Source: Clostridia bacterium (GTDB lineage: Bacteria; Bacillota; Clostridia; Christensenellales; RUG350). Taken from it: DNA of 64,000 nucleotides. Location: the NCBI GenBank assembly GCA_017631635.1, contig JAGBSX010000048.1, forward strand, positions 5,626 to 69,625, read 5' to 3'. This document shows positions 2,511 through 60,305 of this stretch, piece by piece; positions within the stretch are counted from its first letter, which is position 1, and each line of letters begins with the position of its first letter. Under the pieces are notes generated by a model, which saw only the letters and a program-made list of their open reading frames with translations, did not search any database and was not told the origin of the DNA. A program made the translations under genes and the position numbers.

Positions 2511-2660
2511 GTGTCCTTGGACACAACACAGTTTGACTGAAGGTCAACACAGTTTCGAGCAAAGCGAAGAACACAGTTGTCCGTAGTCGGACACAAAACG
2601 AAGTTATGCTTATGCATAAACTGTGTGGGCATACGCCCAACGATGTTACCCTATCGGGTA
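2511..2660. repeat. hairpin-array element, divergent variant (E1)
   Basis: Seven mini-hairpins (GTGTC-CTTG-GACAC, TGAC-TGAAG-GTCA, GTCCG-TAGT-CGGAC, ATGC-TTAT-GCAT, GGGC-ATAC-GCCC, TACCC-TATC-GGGTA, one weaker). They are separated by ACACAGTT three times, then by its reverse complement AACTGTGT. Confidence 0.6.
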
Positions 2661-33847: not shown

Positions 33848-34420
33848 CTACATAGGAGGTTTATATGTGGACTGAACAAATGCTATGTATTCTTCTAAAC
33901 TTGTGATATAATTATTATACAAAGTCTCTTTTTTGAGTATGCTATGAAAACGCTCCATTGGAGAGTCGTCAATAGGCGTGCCTTTACGGCTCATGGAAAT
34001 GGTGATTCCATTAGCTTCACAGATGGCTTTGTATTCAAAGGACGTGTATTGAAACCCTTGGTCACTGTGAATGATTAGGTTTTTCACGTTTTTTTTTGCT
34101 ATTGCTTCGTTTAACGTATCCGTCACAAGAGAAATATTATTAAATTTCCCTATTCTATACGCAACAATTCTTCTATCATACAAATCTATTATTGTAGATA
34201 AATATGCTCGTTTCTCGTTGTGTATTAAATATGTTATGTCAGTCAACCAAACTTTGTTTGGAGCAGTAGAATTAAAATTACGTTTTATTAAATTAGGCTT
34301 AACGTTTTCTACTATTTGACGATATTTAGGTTTTGTTTTAATTCTCTTTACATATTCAGGTTTTAAGGCGTATTTTGCCATAATTCGTTGAACTTTTTTG
34401 TGATTAAATATGCGTGTCAC
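33848..34420 (-). mobile_element. IS3-family transposase OrfB fragment (5'-truncated, no OrfA)
   Basis: DDE core WLTDITYL...HSDQGFQYTS...PMERFHSILKKE. Only 190 aa, starts at a GTG with no RBS, and there is no upstream orfA or frameshift site. Confidence 0.75.
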
Positions 34421-34482: not shown

Positions 34483-34833
34483 TTATTTCTCTTTAAGTGT
34501 TTTGCACGAAGAAATTAACATTTTTCGTATTGCACCACAATCGTTATTTAGTTTTTTATATTGATTTTCTTCTAAATAGCCTGTTTCAAAAAGCAATTCC
34601 AACCAATATTCACTTTCAAAGCACTCTTTTAATGCTATATCAAGTTTTGAAATAAAATCAGCCGTTCCTTGAGCGTACTGCGCTTAGTGGATATTTGCAC
34701 CAATACTTGTTCCCGAACGCAATAGTTGATTAGTTAATACACTTTCTTTATTGTTGGCTTTAATTTCTCTTGTAATAAATACAATGTTTTTAGCAAACTC
34801 TTTTGCTTTTTCTCTTAAAATGCTTTCACGCAT
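34483..34833 (-). pseudogene. four-helix-bundle protein (TIGR02436 / 23S IVS protein / Avd-like) with an in-frame TAA
   Basis: My translation is MRESILREKAKEFAKNIVFITREIKANNKESVLTNQLLRSGTSIGANIH*AQYAQGTADFISKLDIALKECFESEYWLELLFETGYL... The stop at 34684-34686 sits where the family has GANI(A/H)EA. Confidence 0.65.
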
Positions 34834-34868
34834 ACAATAATTATAGCATAAATCAAGTTTTTAGTAAA

Positions 34869-35077
34869 GTGATATTGTTTGCATAGCAAACAGTTATATT
34901 TTTAGAGCAAGTCTAAAAGTTATATTTTGACCTGTGGTCAAAGTTATATTATATTTGCCACAACTCGCCGATAGGCGAATATCACTTTGCGTAGCAAAAT
35001 ATAACGCCGTAAGCATATAACTTGCCGAAAGGCAAATATAGTTGTGGCGTAGTGATAAATCCCTATCACTACGCCAC
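34869..35077 (-). repeat. hairpin-array element copy E2
   Basis: Core GTTATATTATATTTGCCACAAC at 34943-34964 (reverse complement of GTTGTGGCAAATATAATATAAC). 14-bp terminal hairpin GTGGCGTAGTGATA/TATCACTACGCCAC at 35044-35077. Mini-hairpins separated by AGTTATAT / AATATCAC / AATATAAC. Confidence 0.8.
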
Positions 35078-35125
35078 TAATCGTTAGTCCTATTTGATGA
35101 CAATTAAGTCGTGTCTACGTGTGGT

Positions 35126-36064
35126 TTAGTGCAGATATTTGGCTACGAAGTCCCTATATATTTGCTCGTATCTAGGAGTGTCTACTATATATGACGTACC
35201 GTGTCCTGCTCTAGCGAAAGTGTGTAGCGTGATATTGTCGCTCAACTGGGCTATCTTTTTACTCATATCCACAGGTACTAGTTCGTCATCTTCGCCGTGC
35301 ACTATCACAGTAGGTAGATGCGTGAGGGGTGCTGACTTGAGTGGAGATGCGCTCTCTATACCAAATCTACCGTATAGCCTAGCGCCTATCTTGAGTAGGG
35401 GATAGACTAGGGTGGGATTGAGTTTTCTACTAGCACATTCGCTCTTGAGTATGCTATCTACCGAACTGTATGGACAGTCTGCCATTATACATTTGACGGT
35501 AGGAGGTAGAGGTAGGTCTCCACACATTAGCACGGTAGCGCCACCCATAGACACTCCACACAATGCGACCGGCATAGTGGGATATCTTCGTTCGAGATAT
35601 TCTACCCAAGAGAGTACGTCATATCTCTCTAGTATGCCAAACGATATGGTCTTGCCTTCGCTAAGTCCGTGTGCGCGTTGGTCGATAAGTAGGGCGTTGT
35701 GCCCTAGGTCAAGCGCCATACGCAGTCCACCACTCATATCTCTCAGTCCACTACCTTTGTAGCCGTGGCACAATACGTGTATAGGCTTGCTCTCGTCATT
35801 GATATATAGTCTAGCCGATAGCCTCAAGCCATCGTCGGAGGTGACAAATACTCTCTCGTAGGGGAGTTTGGCATTTGTCTCTATGACGGGGACAAAGTCG
35901 TCGTACTGTTGTTTGAGGAGGGGGTCTTGGGATAGGGGATAATATATATCACGATTTTTGATAGGATTAAAAAAGGCTTGTCTATAGGCGTAGTATGAGC
36001 CACCTATGAGGACAAGTGCTATTAGTAATATCACGATTGCCAATATATACCACCACATAATCAA
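35126..36064 (-). CDS. alpha/beta hydrolase with an N-terminal membrane anchor
   Basis: HGYKGS, nucleophile elbow GVSMGG, HGEDD. Confidence 0.75.
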   Translation of the reverse strand: MIMWWYILAIVILLIALVLIGGSYYAYRQAFFNPIKNRDIYYPLSQDPLLKQQYDDFVPVIETNAKLPYERVFVTSDDGLRLSARLYINDESKPIHVLCHGYKGSGLRDMSGGLRMALDLGHNALLIDQRAHGLSEGKTISFGILERYDVLSWVEYLERRYPTMPVALCGVSMGGATVLMCGDLPLPPTVKCIMADCPYSSVDSILKSECASRKLNPTLVYPLLKIGARLYGRFGIESASPLKSAPLTHLPTVIVHGEDDELVPVDMSKKIAQLSDNITLHTFARAGHGTSYIVDTPRYEQIYRDFVAKYLH

Positions 36065-39241: not shown

Positions 39242-40126
39242 TTAGATGAGATTTTGCTCGCGCATTAGGTCGTAGAGAACTTCTGCGTGCTTATCCTCCA
39301 TAGGAGTAAGTGGTAGTCGTAGATAATTGTCACAGTAGCCCATCTTGGCGACGGCTGCTTTGACAGGGATAGGATTGACCTCTACAAATAGTTGCTTGAT
39401 GAGAGGGAATAGGTCTAGTTGGAGTCTAGTAGCCTCCTTGACGTTGCCCTCTAGATAAGCGTGGCACATACGAGAAGTCTCTGCAGGCATTATGTTGGAC
39501 AATACGGATATTACGCCCGAGCCACCTAGAGACATAATAGGTACGATTTGGTCGTCGTTGCCTGAGTAGATGTCTATCTCATCTCCACATAGATGAGCGA
39601 GTTCGGCTATTTGGGATAGATTGCCACTAGCCTCCTTGATGCCCACGATATTGGGGTGCTTTGCGAGTATTTGCATAGATTGAGGAGTGAGGTTGCATCC
39701 AGTACGGCTAGGCACGTTGTATAGTATGCAAGGCTTGGTAGATGCGTCGGCTATAGCCTCAAATGACTTGATGAGACCATTTTGGGTAGCCTTGTTGTAG
39801 TAAGGTGTGACTAGTAGCATAGCATCTGCGCCCACTTCGCAAGAAAACTTGGTGAGTTCGATAGCATAACTAATGTCGTTTGAGCCAGTACCTGCTATGA
39901 CAGGCACTCTACCTGCTACTACGTCTACGCAAAACTTGATAGCGTCTTTGTGCTCTTGGTCGTTGAGAGTAGAGCCCTCACCGGTAGTACCTACTGCTAC
40001 TATGGCGTCTATGCCACTAGCGATTTGCCACTCTATCAATCTGCGAAAATTCTCAAAATCGATACCATTTTCGTTGAGTGGTGTGACGATTGCTGTGGCT
40101 GCGCCTGTAAAAACTGTATTTTTCAT
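39242..40126 (-). CDS. dapA: 4-hydroxy-tetrahydrodipicolinate synthase
   Basis: TAIVTP...GTTGE...YNVP..TG... motifs. ATG 40126 follows an AAGGAG RBS. The 96-codon upstream extension in the track is the riboswitch leader. Confidence 0.9.
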   Translation of the reverse strand: MKNTVFTGAATAIVTPLNENGIDFENFRRLIEWQIASGIDAIVAVGTTGEGSTLNDQEHKDAIKFCVDVVAGRVPVIAGTGSNDISYAIELTKFSCEVGADAMLLVTPYYNKATQNGLIKSFEAIADASTKPCILYNVPSRTGCNLTPQSMQILAKHPNIVGIKEASGNLSQIAELAHLCGDEIDIYSGNDDQIVPIMSLGGSGVISVLSNIMPAETSRMCHAYLEGNVKEATRLQLDLFPLIKQLFVEVNPIPVKAAVAKMGYCDNYLRLPLTPMEDKHAEVLYDLMREQNLI

Positions 40127-40189
40127 AATAAAAATCTCCTTTTTTGCACACAAATATTCATCTTGACAAAAGAAAAAGACGACTGTACG

Positions 40190-40390
40190 CCATCTCATCA
40201 AAATATCGCCACTACGCGAGATAATTGAATCGATAGCCCTCCGCAAAATGCGACAACAAGACGGATATTCTCCGAATTGCCAGCCAAATATCCCTAAGCC
40301 GAGGATACCCACTTCGGCATTCGCCCCTCTCGTGGCAGGTCGGCTAACCCGTACACCCACGATATTGACTAAATGCGCCTCTATCAAATG
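40190..40390 (-). ncRNA. lysine riboswitch (L-box) leader of dapA-dapB-ddh-lysA
   Basis: On the minus strand: GATAGAGGCGC... GAGGGGCGAATGCCGAAGTGGG ...CTGGCA... TGTCGC..GCGGAGGGCTATC. These are the conserved L-box blocks, with a GATAG/CTATC P1. Promoter TTGACA (40427-40422), 17 nt, TATCAT (40404-40399). Confidence 0.7.
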
Positions 40391-40552
40391 ATAGATAGAT
40401 GATAGCATACCCAAATGGCTTTGTCAACATAAAATATGCCTATCTTCGCTAAAATATATAAAAAATCACGATTTTTTCAAAAAAAAGCCTTGCCCACTTG
40501 CTAGATATGTGTATAGTGTGGTATAGTGTATGAGTCGTTAGGAGGAGGAATT

Positions 40553-41935: not shown

Positions 41936-41964
41936 TTGACAAATGTAGATAGTGGTGCTAAACT
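41936..41964 (+). promoter_or_regulatory. promoter for the orphan 5S rRNA
   Basis: TTGACA (41936-41941), 17 nt, TAAACT (41959-41964). A second TATAAT lies at 41975-41980. Confidence 0.45.
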
Positions 41965-42013
41965 TTGAGAACATTATAATTAAGTATATTACGCGTGAGC
42001 GTATATAACCATA

Positions 42014-42129
42014 TCCGGTGACAATAGCGAAAGGGACCCACCTGTATCCATTCCGAACACAGTAGTTAAGCCTTTCAGCGCAGATGGTACTTGACTGGTA
42101 GCGGTCTGGGAGAGTATGACGTCGCCGGA
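42014..42129 (+). rRNA. rrf: 5S ribosomal RNA (stand-alone copy)
   Basis: 116 nt. Terminal helix TCCGGTGAC/GTCGCCGGA. Conserved CCGAACAC, GTTAAGC, CAGCGC.GATGGTA, GGGAGAGTA.GAC. Followed by T6. Confidence 0.9.
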
Positions 42130-42153
42130 TTTTTTATGCAAAAAAAGAGGGTA

Positions 42154-42473
42154 TTGTCGCTCTTCCCGTAGGGAACTAGCGACAACTAAATAAATCCTTA
42201 CGGATTTGTGATATTCGTCTAACGACGAGTGATATTGCCTGCGGCAGTGATATTTGCCTACGGCAAGTGATATTGCCTATCGGCAGTGATATTTGCCTAT
42301 CGGCAAGTTATATTGCTTACGCAGTTATATTTTGCTAACGCAAAGTTTTATTTTCCCTTTCGGGAAAGTTGTGGTAAATATAATATAACTTTGACCGAAA
42401 GTCAAAATATAACGCAAAATAGTTTTTCATATCACTTTTAGCCACAAGGCTAAAAATATCACTAATATGTTTC
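42154..42473 (+). repeat. hairpin-array element copy E3
   Basis: 5' hairpin TTGTCGCT..AGCGACAA, then TAAATAAATCC-ttac-GGATTT. Nine units of GT(G/T)ATATT plus hairpin. Core GTTGTGGTAAATATAATATAAC at 42368-42389. Then hairpins followed by AATATAAC / ATATCAC. Confidence 0.85.
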
Positions 42474-42534
42474 AATTTGTCCAAAGTCTATTGCCAATTA
42501 AAAACCTCACCCTGTACGGATGAGGTTTTCGTTT

Positions 42535-42611
<77 letters not shown>

Positions 42612-42651: not shown

Positions 42652-42718
42652 TTGATTTTAGGTAGTTTGCTATTTGCTATCGTTGACTAATTGTGTCAAA
42701 GCGTAGTATACTATGTAT

Positions 42719-43663
42719 ATGAGCAAGCCTAGATACAAATTAGCCAAAGGGACTGCACTCGCCGGCATGGGATTGAGACTGCTAATGGGGTCTTATAGCG
42801 CATGGAAATTTAGAGTGGCAGGCAAGTTTCTCCGTGCTATTTATAGAGGTAGAGGGGACAAGAGAACTCTACGCAGAGGGGAGATATATATACCTAGTGG
42901 AGACAATACTCTCAGGGTGGTCACCTATGAGGACAAGAGCGCTAGTGGAGACACTATAGCACTACTATGGATACACGGAGGTGGCTACGCTATGGGTATC
43001 CCAGAGCAAGAGGTAGTATTCGCCAAGAAGTTGTGCCACTCCTGTCACGTCAAGATGTATCTACCAGACTACACTTTGAGCGTGGACAAGCCATACCCTA
43101 GAGGACTAGAGGATTGCTACACCACTCTACTATATCTCTACGACCACGCAGAGGAGCTAGGGGTAGATAGAGACAAGATAATAGTAGGTGGAGATAGCGC
43201 AGGAGGAGGACTCACGATAGCGCTATGCCTACTCGCTAGAGATAGAGGAGTAGTCAAGATAGCAGGACATATTCCTCTATATCCTATGATAGACTGCAGA
43301 GAGACGGAGACTTCTAGAGACAATCACGCACCCGTATGGGACACCTTGTCCAACAACCGTGCTTGGGATATATACCTGAGGGACGTGGACAGGAATAGTC
43401 CACCTATATACGCCTCACCGTCTCTAGCAGAGAGTTATGAAGGTATGCCACCGTGCGTGACTTTAGTAGGGGAGCATGACCCCTTCTTGGCAGAGACTAG
43501 GAGATACGTGGAGAGACTAAAGAGTGAGGGGATAGATACCTATTACCGTGAGTACGAGGGGTGCTACCACGGATTTGACGTAATAGCAAGAAATTCTCCT
43601 TCGGCTAGAGAAAGTGGAGAGTTTTTGGTAGAGAGTGTCCAAGATATGATAAGCAAATTATAA
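42719..43663 (+). CDS. alpha/beta-fold esterase/lipase (HGGG type)
   Basis: LWIHGGGYAMG oxyanion motif and the GDSAGGGL nucleophile elbow. Start is at 42713 or 42719. No SD, and the -10 TATACT ends at 42712. Confidence 0.75.
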   Translation: MSKPRYKLAKGTALAGMGLRLLMGSYSAWKFRVAGKFLRAIYRGRGDKRTLRRGEIYIPSGDNTLRVVTYEDKSASGDTIALLWIHGGGYAMGIPEQEVVFAKKLCHSCHVKMYLPDYTLSVDKPYPRGLEDCYTTLLYLYDHAEELGVDRDKIIVGGDSAGGGLTIALCLLARDRGVVKIAGHIPLYPMIDCRETETSRDNHAPVWDTLSNNRAWDIYLRDVDRNSPPIYASPSLAESYEGMPPCVTLVGEHDPFLAETRRYVERLKSEGIDTYYREYEGCYHGFDVIARNSPSARESGEFLVESVQDMISKL

Positions 43664-43680: not shown

Positions 43681-44066
43681 AGCCGAGTCCCTACGAGGGA
43701 TTCGGGGGCTAAATAAATCCGTAGACGGATTTGTGATATTCGTCTAACGACGAGTGATATTGCCTATCGGCAAGTTATATTGCCTATCGGCAAGTTATAT
43801 TGCCTATCGGCAGTGATATTTGCCTATCGGCAAGTTATATTGCCTATCGGCAGTTATATTTTGCTAACGCAAAGTTTTATTTTCCCTTTCGGGAAAGTTG
43901 TGGTAAATATAATATAACTGCGACTGTAAGTCGCAATATAGTGCAAAACTTATGTGCATATCACTTTTAGCCACAAGGCTAAAAATATCACTTATCAAAC
44001 TTAATCTTTTGTGGATAAGAAAAGCCCACCATATTTCGCATATAAGCGAAGTATAGTGGGCTACAC
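43681..44066 (+). repeat. hairpin-array element copy E4 (longest)
   Basis: 5' hairpin CCGAGTCCC/GGGATTCGG, then TAAATAAATCC..GGATTT. Tandem units at 43754-43896 (five carry TGCC-TATC-GGCA). Core at 43897-43918. 3' hairpins with ATATCAC spacers. Long 3' hairpin AGCCCACCATATTTCGC..GCGAAGTATAGTGGGCT at 44023-44062. Confidence 0.85.
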
Positions 44067-44131
44067 TTTTGTATTAAATTAAAATCCCCTTATAGGAACG
44101 CCCCTATTAGGAGGCTTTTTTCATAGGGATA

Positions 44132-44896
44132 TTAGGCTAGGCGTAGCACCGTCAAGGTGGCAGAGCCTAGGGTGATAGTACTGTCAGATGTGTTGTATAT
44201 AGACAGAAAGTCTCCTGCGGTGAGTGAGAGGAGGATGGTACGAGATACAGCCTCAGTCTCTGCAGAGGTGTTGACTGACAAAGTTTCGTTTGGCACAAGC
44301 ACACCGTTTCTATACAGCGACACCGATAGGTCGCTACCACCTGCCTCAGGAGTACCTGATAGTGAGTATGATACTAGATATACTCCACTCTCTGTGATGA
44401 ATACGCTACTACCCGTGACAATCATAGTACTGCCCACAGTTTGCTCAACTTGCGCGATAGGCAGTACAGTATCGGTAGCAATCGTACCTGCGTACACTCC
44501 TGCATATATAGCGTCGTTTGTACCTGCAGGGCCTTGAGGGCCTACAGGACCAGTCGCACCTGTAGCGCCGGTCGGACCTACAGGACCTATTGCACCAGTC
44601 GCACCAGTTGGGCCTTGTGGACCTACCGGACCTACAGGACCTACAGGGCCAGTCGCACCAGTTGCACCCGTCTCTCCCTGAGGGCCTGCTGGACCTACTG
44701 GACCTCTAGGACCTCGAGGACCTATTGCACCAGTCGCACCAGTCGCACCTGTAGCACCAGTCGGACCTATAGGACCTTGTGGTCCCATAGCACCCATAGG
44801 GCCCTGAGGACCTTGTGGACCTACAGGACCTCTCGGTCCACGAAGATACACGTAGTTTGGTTGACAAGTATTGTCACATCTATTAAATAAGCACAT
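44132..44896 (-). CDS. collagen-like triple-helix repeat protein with a BclA-type C-terminal domain
   Basis: 35 uninterrupted G-X-Y triplets ([14 protein letters not shown]...GPQGPAG) by my count. A ~125-aa beta-rich C-terminal domain follows, resembling the BclA/C1q-like exosporium domain. Confidence 0.8.
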
Positions 44897-55607: not shown

Positions 55608-56675
55608 ATGGACAAGATAATCAAGTGGATATTAGTAAGTGTGGTCGTGACATTGGCGACTGTGGGAGAGGTGGCTCGAGCGACCTATGTATATCCACGC
55701 CAAATAGTAGCAAAAGAGGTCAACGTAGATATCCTCAACCTCTATGGTCGAGACGAGGATAGACTGCGAGATGCTCTCATCAATATAGCCGATCACAAGA
55801 TAGCGCTAGATTATATATCTAGTGGTCTAGGAGACAAGGTGGTAGAGGTGGCTAGAGAGGTGGAGAGAGATGCTAGGGGGGATAGCATAATATTTGAGCC
55901 AAATACTAGCGAAAAGTTTCGCTATATACCTGCTAGGAGTGGTATTAGAGTGAAGTGGGATGAGGTGTACCTAGATGCTATAGAGGTGCTATATGCAGGA
56001 GGAGGAGAGGTCAGGGTGCATACCGAGAGTGTGCCTGCCGAGATTAAGTACGATAAAGGTATAGAGAATTATACTACTCTACGGTCCTCTTTCGTGACGT
56101 ATTTTAATATGGACAATACCTCTAGGGTGCACAATATCACTTTGGCTAGTAGCAGTATATCGGGAGTAGTAGTGAGGGCAGGAGAGAGATTTTCTTTCAA
56201 CGAGGTGGTAGGCAAGCGTACCCTAGGGAGAGGATATAGAGTAGCGCCAGTCATAGTCAAAGGAGAACTAGTAGAGGGAGTAGGAGGAGGTGTGTGTCAA
56301 GTGAGCACCACTCTCTACAACGCAGTCACTCTAGCAGGTCTCAAATCGGTGTGCAAGGTCGCCCACTCTATGCCTGTGACCTACGTAGAGCCATCTAGAG
56401 ACGTGACGGTATCGGAGCATATAGATTATGCATTTGTCAATGATAGTGGAGAGGATATCTATATAGAGTGTGTGGCGAGAGCAAATTATATCAAGGTCAA
56501 TATATATGGCGTACGCACCGACGAGCATATAGATATAGACACGGAGTATATAGACGAAGATGGATATAGATATAGCACGGCGTATATAGTCACCACCAAG
56601 AGAGGAGTAGTAGTATCTAGGAGCAAACTGCGTAGCGACAAATACCTTTTACCATCGCCCACTCCCACCACCTAG
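55608..56675 (+). CDS. VanW-family protein
   Basis: GGGVCQVSTTLYNA motif and an N-terminal anchor. Confidence 0.8.
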   Translation: MDKIIKWILVSVVVTLATVGEVARATYVYPRQIVAKEVNVDILNLYGRDEDRLRDALINIADHKIALDYISSGLGDKVVEVAREVERDARGDSIIFEPNTSEKFRYIPARSGIRVKWDEVYLDAIEVLYAGGGEVRVHTESVPAEIKYDKGIENYTTLRSSFVTYFNMDNTSRVHNITLASSSISGVVVRAGERFSFNEVVGKRTLGRGYRVAPVIVKGELVEGVGGGVCQVSTTLYNAVTLAGLKSVCKVAHSMPVTYVEPSRDVTVSEHIDYAFVNDSGEDIYIECVARANYIKVNIYGVRTDEHIDIDTEYIDEDGYRYSTAYIVTTKRGVVVSRSKLRSDKYLLPSPTPTT

Positions 56676-57048
56676 CCGAGTCCTATTAGGGACTCGGCAA
56701 CTAAATAAATCCTTACGGATTTGTGATATTGCATCGCAGTGTTGCCGAGCAACTTTAGTTGCGAACGCCAACTGCTTTAGCAGTTATATTGCCTATCGGC
56801 AGTTATATTTGCCTACGGCAAGTTAAGGATTTATTTAATATAACTTTGGCGATAGCCAAAATATAACTTTTAGACTTGTCTAAAAATATAACTGTTTGCA
56901 CAGCAAACAATATCACTTTACTTAAAAATCATATGCTTTGCAAAGCAAAAAGAAAAGGATAGCAAAAAATTTTGCTATCCTTTTATATTCCTAAAAAATC
57001 CCTAAGGGCGATGCCCTTAGCCGAATCCCTTGTAGGGACTCGGCTAGG
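56675..57048 (+). repeat. hairpin-array element copy E5
   Basis: Starts at the vanW stop codon. Bounded by near-identical hairpins GCCGAGTCC..GGACTCGGC (56676-56699) and GCCGAATCCC..GGGACTCGGC (57020-57044). Has GTGATATT/GTTATATT then AATATAAC/AATATCAC spacers. Central AAGGATTTATTTA replaces the usual core. Confidence 0.8.
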
Positions 57049-59001: not shown

Positions 59002-59067
59002 TCGTATCAATACAAAAAAGCATTTCGCAAAACAGCAATAGACATAGGAATTTTTAAACAATAAAAA

Positions 59068-59303
59068 GTGTAGCCCACTATACTTCGCAAAAAGCGAAAT
59101 ATGGTGGGCTTTGCTTATCCACAGAATAGTTAAATAATTTAGTTATATTTTATCCTATGGTTAAAGTTATATTATATTTGCCACAACTTTCCCGAAAGGG
59201 AAAATAAAACTTTGCATAGCAAAATATCACTGCTTTTAGCAATATAACTTGCCGTTAGGCAAATATAGTTGTGGCGTAGCAATAATCCCTATCGCTACGC
59301 CAC
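59068..59303 (-). repeat. hairpin-array element copy E6
   Basis: Core at 59166-59187 (reverse complement orientation). Terminal hairpin GTGGCGTAGC..GCTACGCCAC at 59271-59303. Long hairpin AGCCCAC..GTGGGCT at 59072-59110, homologous to E4 44023-44062. Confidence 0.8.
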
Positions 59304-59354
59304 TAAGAAACGCTTTTTTCATTTTGTTTGTTTTGTTTGACTATCTAGTAGTGC

Positions 59355-60305
59355 TCATTTATTGACTACGTTGACAGGTGCGCCTGATAGATAAGCCGAT
59401 ACGTTGTGGGCGACTATATCCATTAGTCTCTGTCTAGACTCCCTAGGCGCCCAAGCGATATGAGGTGTGATAGTCAAGTGAGGTGTGTCCACGAGAGGAC
59501 AGTCTCTATTCATAGGCTCTACGGATAGCACGTCTAGATATGCGTGCGCTATCACTCTGTCTCGTAGCGCTCTATCTAGGGCTACCTCGTCCACGACAGG
59601 ACCTCTAGAGGTATTGACGAGTACGGCAGTAGATTTCATCATAGATAGAGTAGAGTCGTTGATGAGGTGATGAGTAGAGTCGTTGAGAGGACAATGTAGA
59701 GTGAGGTAATCACTCTCTCCAAATAGAGTCTCTCTATCCACTAGGGTATAGGGCATATCGCTAGGAGTGGTGCGTGTGTGTACCAGTACTCTCATACCCA
59801 TAGCGTCTGCTATGCGTGCTACTCGCTTGCCTATATCTCCGTAGCCAAATATGCCTAATTTTTTGCCATATAGTTCGGCGAGAGGGTAGTCAAAGTAGCA
59901 AAAGGTCTTGCTCGATATCCAATCTCCTCTCTTGACGGATTCGTCGTAGGTATGTATTTGATTGGAGTGGTGTAGTATCATGGCGAATACGTGTTGGGCG
60001 ACGTCTACCGTCGAATACCCTGGTACGTTGGTCACGACTATACCTCTACTCCTAGCATACTCTAGGTCTACGTTGTTGTAGCCGGTGGCTGTGAGTCCTA
60101 TATACCTAAGATTTGGCAATCTCTCAATCATATCTTTGTCAAATAGAGTCTTGTTGCAGATGACGATAGGGGAGTCTATGCAGGCATCTGCTACTTCTTG
60201 TCTAGAGAGTATATCGTGATAGGATACTTCACCTAGAGTATCTACGTGTGATAGGTCTATATCTCCTACTGTGAAAGTAGGTTTGTCTAATACTGTAATC
60301 TTCAT
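59355..60305 (-). CDS. D-isomer-specific 2-hydroxyacid dehydrogenase (glycerate dehydrogenase-like)
   Basis: GIFGYGDIGKRVA NAD motif, SRG, and a H...P.ES catalytic region. Confidence 0.85.
   Translation of the reverse strand: MKITVLDKPTFTVGDIDLSHVDTLGEVSYHDILSRQEVADACIDSPIVICNKTLFDKDMIERLPNLRYIGLTATGYNNVDLEYARSRGIVVTNVPGYSTVDVAQHVFAMILHHSNQIHTYDESVKRGDWISSKTFCYFDYPLAELYGKKLGIFGYGDIGKRVARIADAMGMRVLVHTRTTPSDMPYTLVDRETLFGESDYLTLHCPLNDSTHHLINDSTLSMMKSTAVLVNTSRGPVVDEVALDRALRDRVIAHAYLDVLSVEPMNRDCPLVDTPHLTITPHIAWAPRESRQRLMDIVAHNVSAYLSGAPVNVVNK

Follow-up and report, generated by a model that had tools for sequence, protein, structure and literature searches.

What are the arrays of very short hairpins, set off from one another by a conserved 8-nt linker, that recur between the genes of a Clostridia genome? 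The DNA considered here, called the window, is a 64,000-nt stretch of contig JAGBSX010000048.1 (assembly GCA_017631635.1), and the copy that raised the question, the focal copy, occupies positions 43681-44066 (+). An initial reading made from the letters of the window (the sequence-only reading) had described five loci with one common architecture, whose coordinates and strands were all verified, and had held that they match nothing known. All five copies match the Rfam noncoding RNA family Gut-1 (RF01706), on the strands that had been given, and one of them does so above the gathering score; because that reading had itself named a clear match to a described noncoding RNA family as the finding that would undo its claim of novelty, the claim falls. 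The window loci are diverged, unit-expanded members of the Gut-1 family, an identity that is secure, and the roughly 1.7 kb of "strange" intergenic sequence is one copy linked to a gene for a small Avd-like protein of family PF05635, together with four orphan copies. The family itself was already catalogued, and what is new is its extended architecture, its taxonomic placement, its dispersal and its tight association with Avd-like genes.

The Gut-1 covariance model, whose curated gathering score is 50 bits, reaches 65.2 bits at 42206-42278, and the other four copies fall below that cut-off at 48.2, 43.3, 39.6 and 38.9 bits (E = 2.5e-8 to 2.1e-5), so that the focal copy, with a best score of 43.3 bits, does not by itself pass. 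Alignment to the model consensus places at least three short covarying hairpins with the conserved linker GUGANAU between them, and the left arm of the elements corresponds to this motif of tandem short hairpins. The core and the inverted right arm are present in the unmodeled flanks of the Gut-1 seed sequences, since rows BAAZ01000095 and BAAZ01025322 of the seed have ...GGCGAAUAUAAUAUCAC in their flanks and, after it, units made of a hairpin and AAUAUCAC, and one of the relatives collected here, L161, has the same sequence as the second of these seeds. Gut-1 was described by Weinberg et al. 2010 as occurring "only in human gut metagenomes" (PMC2864571), as a 77-nt model of three hairpins with no organism, gene association or function (PMC2864571). 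The elements described here, likewise from gut bacteria, are longer, at ~170-390 nt, and include parts that the published model lacks, namely a hairpin at the 5' end (P0), a long-range helix (P1), a right arm in which the linker is inverted, and terminators; they are also multicopy, linked to PF05635 genes, and placed in metagenome-assembled genomes (MAGs) of Oscillospirales and Christensenellales. The window copies differ further from the published motif in their linker, GUGAUAUU, and in left arms that are expanded or mosaic. Our search of the literature for the 8-mers and for "Gut-1" returned nothing beyond Weinberg et al. 2010.

The five copies stand far above chance expectation in counts of their words against shuffled sequence, which bears out the shared architecture. 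GTKATATT occurs 52 times in the window, compared with 7.4 +/- 2.7 in shuffles, with nearly all occurrences inside the five loci, and the 22-nt core GTTGTGGYAAATATAATATAAC has four exact occurrences, compared with 0.01 expected, with a variant core, GTTAAGGATTTATTTAATATAAC, in the 56675 copy at 56822-56844. Relatives were collected by scanning species-representative genomes with three spaced AATATMAC words, which gave at least 120 loci, and the counts of canonical forms, neighbors and clusters given below are among the matches listed from that scan. The inversion of the 8-mer around the core, as originally proposed, is seen as a switch to the reverse complement at the core of every window copy, and the same order of forward linkers followed by reverse linkers (F...F R...R) is found in nearly all of ~100 related clusters. 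The iterated unit of the focal left arm was recovered by Tandem Repeats Finder at 43753-43860 (period 20, 5.4 copies, 91% matches), and the TGCC-TATC-GGCA hairpin that had been assigned to five units was counted, as GCC-TATC-GGC, in five. The 42154 copy contains a similar array (42208-42332, period 20, 6.5 copies), and the left arm has expanded through duplication of the 20-nt unit in two of the four orphan copies. The copies are mosaic, with 72-90% identity over partial alignments. Folding of the focal copy is far more stable than that of its shuffles on both strands (z = -10.7 on the + strand and -9.9 on the - strand). The copies had also been placed in intergenic DNA, and their 3'-trailer positions were confirmed. 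The possibility of an assembly artifact, raised at the outset, was checked as well: the 468-nt intergenic region that holds the focal copy is present with 0-1 differences in three independent metagenome assemblies and is therefore not such an artifact, and no strain-level polymorphism of the focal copy was found in those three assemblies.

Gut-1 is a dispersed, structured intergenic element of gut Clostridia, comprising Oscillospirales and Christensenellales. Nearly all element loci come from gut Clostridia MAGs, the hosts being Acutalibacteraceae, Oscillospiraceae, Ruminococcus and Christensenellaceae, and variants like those of the window (core GGATTTATTTA and a 3' module of GTGGATAAG plus a long hairpin) are found in Christensenellaceae-type MAGs. 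A phage origin was considered and rejected, as the 119 matches of the pattern to viral contigs include only ~3 real elements and otherwise consist of AT-rich chance matches, mostly in giant-virus MAGs. About 60 loci share a canonical form of ~170 nt, which reads, in order, P0, CA, F1 (GTTNTATT), H1 (CGCC..GGCG), F2, H2 (GC-TTC-GC), F3, H3, F4, H4, AGTT...GGCGAATANAAT (the core), ATCAC, H5, R2, H6, R3, H7 and R4, where P0 is a 5' stem-loop of 8-14 bp that is often terminator-like, and where the hairpins of the right arm are capped by GNA or GNRA loops with AAUAUCAC between them. The left domain is closed by P1, a 12-bp long-range helix in which the first linker plus CGCC pairs with GGCGAATANAAT of the core.

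It had been proposed that selection acts on pairing and not on the sequence of the stems, and RNAalifold, run on 39 canonical relatives, independently predicts both P1 and the local hairpins. Covariation was counted on the same relatives: 95.9% of cells are paired, versus 78.0% in shuffles, compensatory two-sided changes occur in 26 of 42 pairs, none of 500 shuffles reaches any of the covariation measures, and slid controls are 34-50% paired. Position 4 of P1 is a clear instance, being U-A in 34, A-U in 30, C-G in 14, and U·G and G·U in one each of 80 distinct elements, with no mismatches. Two further types of P1 pair within the window, ATATTTGCC/GGCAAATAT in the 34869 and 59068 copies and TAAATAAATCC/GGATTTATTTA in the 56675 copy. 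The focal and 42154 copies carry the 5' strand of one P1 type and the core of the other; in the focal copy, hairpin 43715..43732 has a 5' half that, with the bases upstream of it (CTAAATAAATCC), is the P1 5' strand type of the 56675 copy, and the best partner of the core is an internal ATATTTGCC unit, with one G·U pair, so that P1 of the focal copy is not canonical. That P1 can form only with an internal unit in these two copies fits the description of the copies as mosaic. The description of the 8-mers as conserved and single-stranded holds as to conservation but only partly as to single-strandedness, in that F1 pairs with the core in P1, and the left-arm 8-mers can extend neighboring stems through G·U pairs.

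Three other pairings were considered and set aside. Nested pairing of left and right 8-mers, which would build a rod of four-way junctions, shows no F/R register better than the others; F2-F4 vary while R1-R4 stay AATATCAC, and the pairing of F1 with the core alone is supported. Pairing of GTTGTGG in the core with CCACAAC in P0 showed no covariation in L039, and pairing of the last linker with the ribosome-binding site (RBS) of the downstream gene showed none by eye. Individual hairpins keep their positional identity across genera. In L115 (1761-1860) a 40-nt insertion with its own hairpin lies in the H1 loop, which speaks for H1 being a genuine hairpin despite the ability of its 5' half to join P1. 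The invariant 3' half of H1 (GGCGAGU) can also pair with the invariant H2 (GCU.CGC), leaving the second linker in a hexaloop (alignment columns 22-44), and this may be an alternative fold when P1 forms, at positions that are invariant. Half elements, with one arm only (hairpin-AATATMAC x4-5 plus a terminator), were seen in L103 (1962-2187), L091 (4023-4092 and 5396-5465), L113 and L120; some are tandemly duplicated as whole units, and several start with a conserved GGAATATTCCAYAACT.

The position of the elements relative to genes, together with their wobble pairs, suggests which strand folds. Internal wobbles in P1 are G·U in nine cases versus A·C in one, those in the right-arm hairpins are six versus one, and those in the left arm one versus one. 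The upstream neighbor is co-oriented by open reading frame (ORF) calls in 38 of 50 loci, with its stop codon often 45-60 nt before F1, and five of the 12 loci that are not co-oriented have a co-oriented tRNA or tmRNA gene in between; such a gene precedes 16 of 56 canonical elements, always in the same orientation. All five window copies follow a same-strand gene or 5S rRNA, and many copies end in a same-strand 3' terminator, as in the focal copy, whose terminator-like 3' module also closes the 59068 copy and relatives L069, L089 and L092. In L348 and L351, two of the loci with a second PF05635 subfamily discussed below, the ATG comes only 15 nt after the last linker, and the gene must therefore be transcribed through the element. 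From these patterns it is concluded that the predicted fold belongs to the top strand, that is, the strand of the upstream gene, and RNA appears the likelier folded form.

The same positions are what would be expected if the element were a general-purpose module of 3' ends that binds no particular ligand and acts both as a compound terminator or insulator and as a barrier to 3' exonucleases, in the manner of repetitive extragenic palindromic (REP) sequences and bacterial interspersed mosaic elements (BIMEs). The spacing from the upstream stop codon, the resemblance of P0 plus the U-rich first linker (GUUUUAUU) to an intrinsic terminator, the prediction that several left-arm units are terminator-like on the incoming strand and the second terminator that closes many copies all accord with this possibility, as does the placement of 12 of 58 elements between a terminator and the next promoter, versus 0.9% of random positions. 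Such a module would leave unexplained the helix P1, the conserved linker that changes together with the PF05635 subfamily, and the 94% linkage to one small gene described next, and we give it a rather poor chance of being the explanation.

The sequence-only reading had stated that no ORF lies beside the copies, which does not hold for the 34869 copy, as this copy is followed by a PF05635 gene (34486-34833, -). At several loci the last linker is succeeded by a promoter, an RBS and a gene whose product begins MSxSILRDKAKxFA...; this 118-aa product belongs to PF05635 (23S_rRNA_IVP; E = 1.8e-28), and its closest solved structure is PDB 2RLD (E = 5e-29), which contains five chains, so that the linked Avd-like protein is probably pentameric. 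The linkage was sampled from the side of the protein in 70 metagenome loci that encode a relative of at least 77% identity and have at least 230 nt of upstream sequence, and a full element lies directly upstream of the gene in 66 of these (94%), or in 38 of 41 distinct upstream sequences. The complete element and the gene immediately downstream form a compact module of ~600 bp. A sigma-70-like promoter starts 0-7 nt past the last linker in 29 of the 38 linked loci, and the distance from the last linker to the ATG in linked loci is 45-54 nt; because the gene has its own promoter in these 29, the element is not always in the main mRNA. The arrangement is not that of a type III (ToxIN-like) toxin-antitoxin system, where one promoter serves a tandem RNA array, a terminator and then the gene of a toxin endoribonuclease that cuts the repeats: here a PF05635 helical bundle stands in the place of that enzyme, the units are not exact copies of one another in direct repeat, and the array is usually separated from the gene by a promoter. 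Neither is it a CRISPR array, with identical direct repeats of 24-48 nt and unique spacers, to which the 8-nt repeat and the self-complementary hairpins in place of spacers do not correspond; no cas genes were found in the window, and the Rfam CRISPR-DR match is weak and lies outside the array. An insertion sequence (IS) has not truncated the PF05635 gene of the window, which keeps its full length but is interrupted at codon 50 by a single in-frame stop (GANIH*AQ; relatives have E there); read-through, strain variation or decay to a pseudogene may each account for this. In a contig of a MAG labeled Bacteroidaceae (L047, 515-1440), CTTCAC-type units, partly masked by N, lie upstream of a PF05635 gene, and a separate seven-unit (hairpin-AATATMAC) array ending in a terminator lies ~400 nt downstream.

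The module is found in unrelated surroundings, which brings in the possibility that the element is a selfish nonautonomous DNA repeat, similar to a miniature inverted-repeat transposable element (MITE), a REP or a BOX, on whose single-stranded form a trans-acting transposase or recombinase would act, with the Avd-like gene as a passenger. Between species, nucleotide homology begins at F1 and stops shortly after the gene, with no relation between the flanks; in L154 (1238-2162) and L159 (2240-3164), which come from two metagenomes and have different flanks, the element, the PF05635 gene and a small Cys-rich ORF together span 925 bp of 98% identity, with the left boundary exactly at the A-tract of the P0 terminator. 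The inverted linker arrays, which form inverted termini, and the perfect mini-palindromes would serve as recognition and hairpin sites, and the five copies in the 64-kb window, the two or more loci per MAG among the matches listed, the mosaic copies with tandem unit expansion, the dyad symmetry of linkers and loops, the very few non-Watson-Crick stem pairs and the strong preference for sites just past terminators and tRNA or tmRNA genes are all in keeping with it. REP/BIME and BOX elements are likewise multicopy and intergenic, mostly found just after genes, with modular hairpins in variable unit number, and can serve as terminators or RNA stabilizers, but in those elements it is the sequence of the palindrome that is conserved, whereas here the stems vary and the linker is conserved, with linker orientation that is block-wise and not alternating; no REP-associated tyrosine transposase (RAYT) or IS partner was found in the flanks. 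No transposase, other enzyme or reverse transcriptase recurs in the element flanks (flanks, as opposed to whole genomes), where ORF clustering over at least 120 loci gives, apart from unrelated housekeeping genes, the PF05635 gene alone (10 loci), so that a recurrent neighboring enzyme was rejected. Target-site duplications are absent at the boundaries of the L154/L159 module, the position is stable within a species (one context in 10 of 10 contigs), each hairpin keeps its positional identity across genera, and a DNA repeat does not account for P1, with its three Watson-Crick variants, G·U intermediates and one-strand bias. We consider the selfish repeat unlikely, if still worth keeping in mind.

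Six species carrying a second PF05635 subfamily, which shares 48% identity with the first, were also sampled, and five of them repeat the layout: the terminator of a tRNA or other gene comes first, then the left arm, a core that has a complement of the P1 type, and the right arm, with the gene last. The linker of these elements is a different one, with GTGAAG[CT] as its left form and ACTTCAC as its right form, and the Gut-1 model scores 44.7-47.4 bits on these elements; some of these loci have no promoter between the element and the gene. This last feature bears on the phased double-stranded DNA-binding array that had been suggested at the outset, in which a protein, possibly PF05635 itself, would occupy 8-mers spaced 20-24 bp apart and control the abutting promoter. 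The last linker does abut the -35 box in 29 of the 38 linked loci of the first subfamily, at a fixed 45-54 nt from the ATG, and the linkers occur in both orientations, in two inverted blocks, with a period near 21 bp, or about two helical turns. Binding to duplex DNA would require none of the compensatory changes seen in seven hairpins and P1, which such an array leaves unexplained, and the promoterless loci of the second subfamily and the orphan copies offer it no promoter to control, so that an operator array is very unlikely.

Sigma-70-like promoters predicted on the opposite strand lie within some elements, at L016 7513-7541 (-) and in the window at 42377-42405 (-) and 43909-43936 (-), with H5 holding the -35 box, and the first right linker and core an extended -10 box; they point into the left arm. 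One may therefore ask whether the product is instead a bottom-strand small RNA transcribed leftward from the core and right arm, made up of repeats of a GNA-capped hairpin and AAUAUMAC, and ending at a bidirectional P0. The predicted promoter, TTGAAA-17-TGnTATTAT on the bottom strand in L016, is in the same place in two window copies, the left-arm loops are GNA or GNRA on the bottom strand, the half-elements L091, L113 and L120 are such an array plus terminator, and the conserved module takes in the A-tract of P0. The covarying P1 position would then fall within the -10 box, upstream of the start site, the G·U asymmetry favors the top strand, the GC-rich types of P0 have no A-tract and would not terminate bottom-strand transcripts, and the covariation of the right arm would be left unexplained; a bottom-strand product is highly improbable.

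What the protein resembles offers a more specific proposal. PF05635 is similar to Avd, the accessory protein of diversity-generating retroelements (DGRs) (PMC10053308). Avd is a positively charged pentameric barrel, all five protomers of which bind an 11-bp, tetraloop-capped RNA stem-loop, and 207 of 278 DGRs are predicted to have a similar stem-loop, 9 bp long and capped by GNRA or UNCG (bioRxiv 10.1101/2023.10.23.563531). Because of this resemblance to a pentamer that binds a capped RNA stem-loop, we propose that the Avd-like protein has the element as its RNA partner or leader, a structured RNA with multiple sites, a suggestion to which we would give about an even chance. The notion of a protein-titrating multi-site RNA, put forward from the sequence alone, is still the most attractive one and has now gained a candidate ligand from the gene linkage, while its mechanism is conjectural. 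The hairpin-plus-linker units, P0, or both would be repeated binding sites for the Avd-like protein; the linked copy might mediate autoregulation or the assembly of a ribonucleoprotein, and the orphan copies, presumably transcribed as 3' trailers of mRNAs, tRNAs or 5S rRNA, might be additional binding platforms or decoys, or else decaying relics. Family identity, architecture, covariation and genomic linkage are the observed basis from which we infer transcription, protein binding and any regulatory outcome.

In the DGR of Bordetella phage BPP-1, as here, a gene for a PF05635-like four-helix bundle (a pentamer in the case of Avd) adjoins a structured noncoding RNA; the stem-loop of ~9-11 bp with a tetraloop cap that Avd binds resembles P0, and a long-range duplex of ~13 bp brackets an internal segment of the DGR RNA, as P1 does here. 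The gene order is reversed, with the RNA upstream of the gene in the elements described here, and the repeated linker-hairpin units have no counterpart in the DGR RNA. No reverse transcriptase motif was found in the window, no reverse transcriptase recurs in the flanks, and a template/variable repeat pair or target gene is absent nearby, so that with only an Avd-like gene present the system is not a DGR.

Several observations weigh against a structured RNA partner of the Avd-like protein. From the side of the element the gene adjoins only ~10% of loci (~10 of 100), the gene has its own promoter between element and RBS in most linked loci, the co-variation of linker and protein comes from only two subfamilies, and in the window it is the linked gene that is broken, yet the orphan copies are intact. 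RNA and single-stranded DNA of the same strand fit the evidence alike, G·U pairs make up <1% of stem pairs, and non-Watson-Crick pairs as a whole are very rare. The left-arm loops (UUC, UAC, UGC, UUGC and others), which are closed by C-G in 472 of 580 units, are of the form UNC/UNNC and so are complements of the right-arm GNA/GNRA loops (GAA/GCA/GUAA/GCAA), a dyad symmetry that fits a process at the DNA level or transcription of both strands. In tRNA-adjacent copies P0 is predicted to be a strong intrinsic terminator, and transcription into the element would therefore need read-through, and the predicted leftward promoter inside the element does not suit a simple RNA.

In its broader form the proposal would be that Gut-1 and a stand-alone Avd-like PF05635 protein make up an unrecognized, possibly mobile ribonucleoprotein, with hairpin-plus-linker units that act as sequence-specific docking sites and co-evolve with the protein subfamily (GUGAUAUU with one and GUGAAGY with the other) and with dispersed orphan copies, located after tRNA, rRNA and mRNA genes, that recruit or titrate the protein across the genome; we offer this tentatively, as a possibility more doubtful than probable. 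A precedent is HEARO, or omega-RNA, which is reportedly an orphan motif from the same discovery pipeline that was found beside one ORF in mobile contexts and later turned out to be the RNA subunit of IscB. The precedent is one of analogy only, as there is no likeness in sequence or structure and the protein here is a small helical bundle and not a nuclease. In RNA sponges such as CsrB and RsmZ, many repeats of a short motif on or between hairpins titrate a protein, and the repeats described here could by analogy titrate an oligomeric protein that also acts at the RBS; several linked genes have a GAGGUGAUAUU-AUG region similar to the linker GUGAUAUU. Unlike CsrB and RsmZ, the motif is in the linker and not in the loops, and there is no homology. 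With Gut-1, an orphan since 2010, and PF05635 joined in this way, whether a pentamer binds the array and what that binding controls become one question, and one with wide scope, as PF05635 (the "23S rRNA intervening-sequence protein" family) is very large, with 8,000 close relatives for each of two queries. Rfam gains an extended two-domain model and a taxonomic home for Gut-1, and for this window the message is a smaller one, that a known family explains odd intergenic DNA (Table 1).

Table 1. Positions of the Gut-1 copies, their parts and adjoining features in the window.
Feature	Position	Strand	Remarks
P0 of focal copy, 5' hairpin AGCCGAGTCCC-TAC-GAGGGATTCGGGGGCT	43681..43710	+	starts 18 nt past Abhydrolase_3 stop codon
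Abhydrolase_3 gene, upstream of focal copy	42713-43663	+	
Hairpin AAATCC-GTAGAC-GGATTT, focal copy	43715..43732	+	
Left arm, focal copy	43733..43896	+	eight linker 8-mers, each followed by a mini-hairpin; period-20 tandem array
GTKATATT linkers, focal left arm	43733, 43754, 43774, 43794, 43813, 43834, 43853	+	
Eighth left-arm linker GTTTTATT, focal copy	43876	+	
Rfam Gut-1 matches, focal left arm	43706-43785; 43811-43885	+	43.3 bits; 36.0 bits
Core GTTGTGGTAAATATAATATAAC, focal copy	43897..43918	+	
Right arm, focal copy	43919..43991	+	TGCGAC-TGTAA-GTCGCA; TTTTAGCC-ACAA-GGCTAAAA
3' module, focal copy	44011..44071	+	GTGGATAAG, 16-bp hairpin GCCCACCATATTTCGC/GCGAAGTATAGTGGGC, then TACACTTTTG
Lone 5S rRNA gene	42014-42130	+	
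Gut-1 copy directly behind lone 5S rRNA gene	42154..42473	+	core 42368-42389; bidirectional terminator 42500-42535
Copy behind VanW gene (55608-56675)	56675..57048	+	Gut-1 38.9 bits; P1 variant ACTAAATAAATCC (56700-56712) with GGATTTATTTA in core (56822-56844); terminator 56953-56986
Canonical linked copy behind alpha/beta-hydrolase gene (35126-36064, -)	34869..35079	-	Gut-1 48.2 bits; P0 35041-35079; P1 5' strand ACTATATTTGCC 35031-35042; core 34943-34964
Sigma-70-like promoter TTTACT-17-TATAAT	34840..34868	-	abuts last linker of 34869 copy
PF05635 (23S_rRNA_IVP / Avd-like four-helix-bundle) gene	34486..34833	-	89% identical to L039 protein
Copy behind 2-hydroxyacid dehydrogenase gene (59355-60305, -) (59068 copy)	59063..59305	-	Gut-1 39.6 bits; P0 59268-59305; core 59166-59187; 3' terminator module 59063-59122
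Analogous array with other linker	2511..2660	+	ACACAGTT x3, then its complement AACTGTGT
ORF of 190 aa, rve integrase core domain (IS fragment)	33848-34420	-	450 bp from 34869 copy

After each hairpin in the right arm of the focal copy comes the inverted linker, either as AATATMAC or in degenerate form. The array at 2511-2660, which had been taken for a divergent sixth copy, has a different linker and is not matched by the Gut-1 model; it sits between a terminator-like hairpin and the TTGACA-17-TATAAT promoter of a PF00545 ribonuclease gene, and is analogous in design to the five copies without being established as homologous to them. No connection to the repeats is apparent for the rve integrase ORF, which follows closely after the PF05635 gene. 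The 5S rRNA gene that precedes the 42154 copy is a lone one, as 16S and 23S rRNA genes are absent from its vicinity; it is served by a TTGACA-17-TAAACT promoter of its own (41936-42130, +, with the gene), and its helix I plus a T6 run resembles a terminator, with the Gut-1 copy immediately after it. Elsewhere in the window, a lysine riboswitch (40226-40391, -; 68.8 bits) lies upstream of the gene at 39242-40414 (-), and a collagen-repeat protein with a BclA C-terminal domain of the exosporium type is encoded at 44132-44896 (-), which suggests a spore-forming Firmicute.

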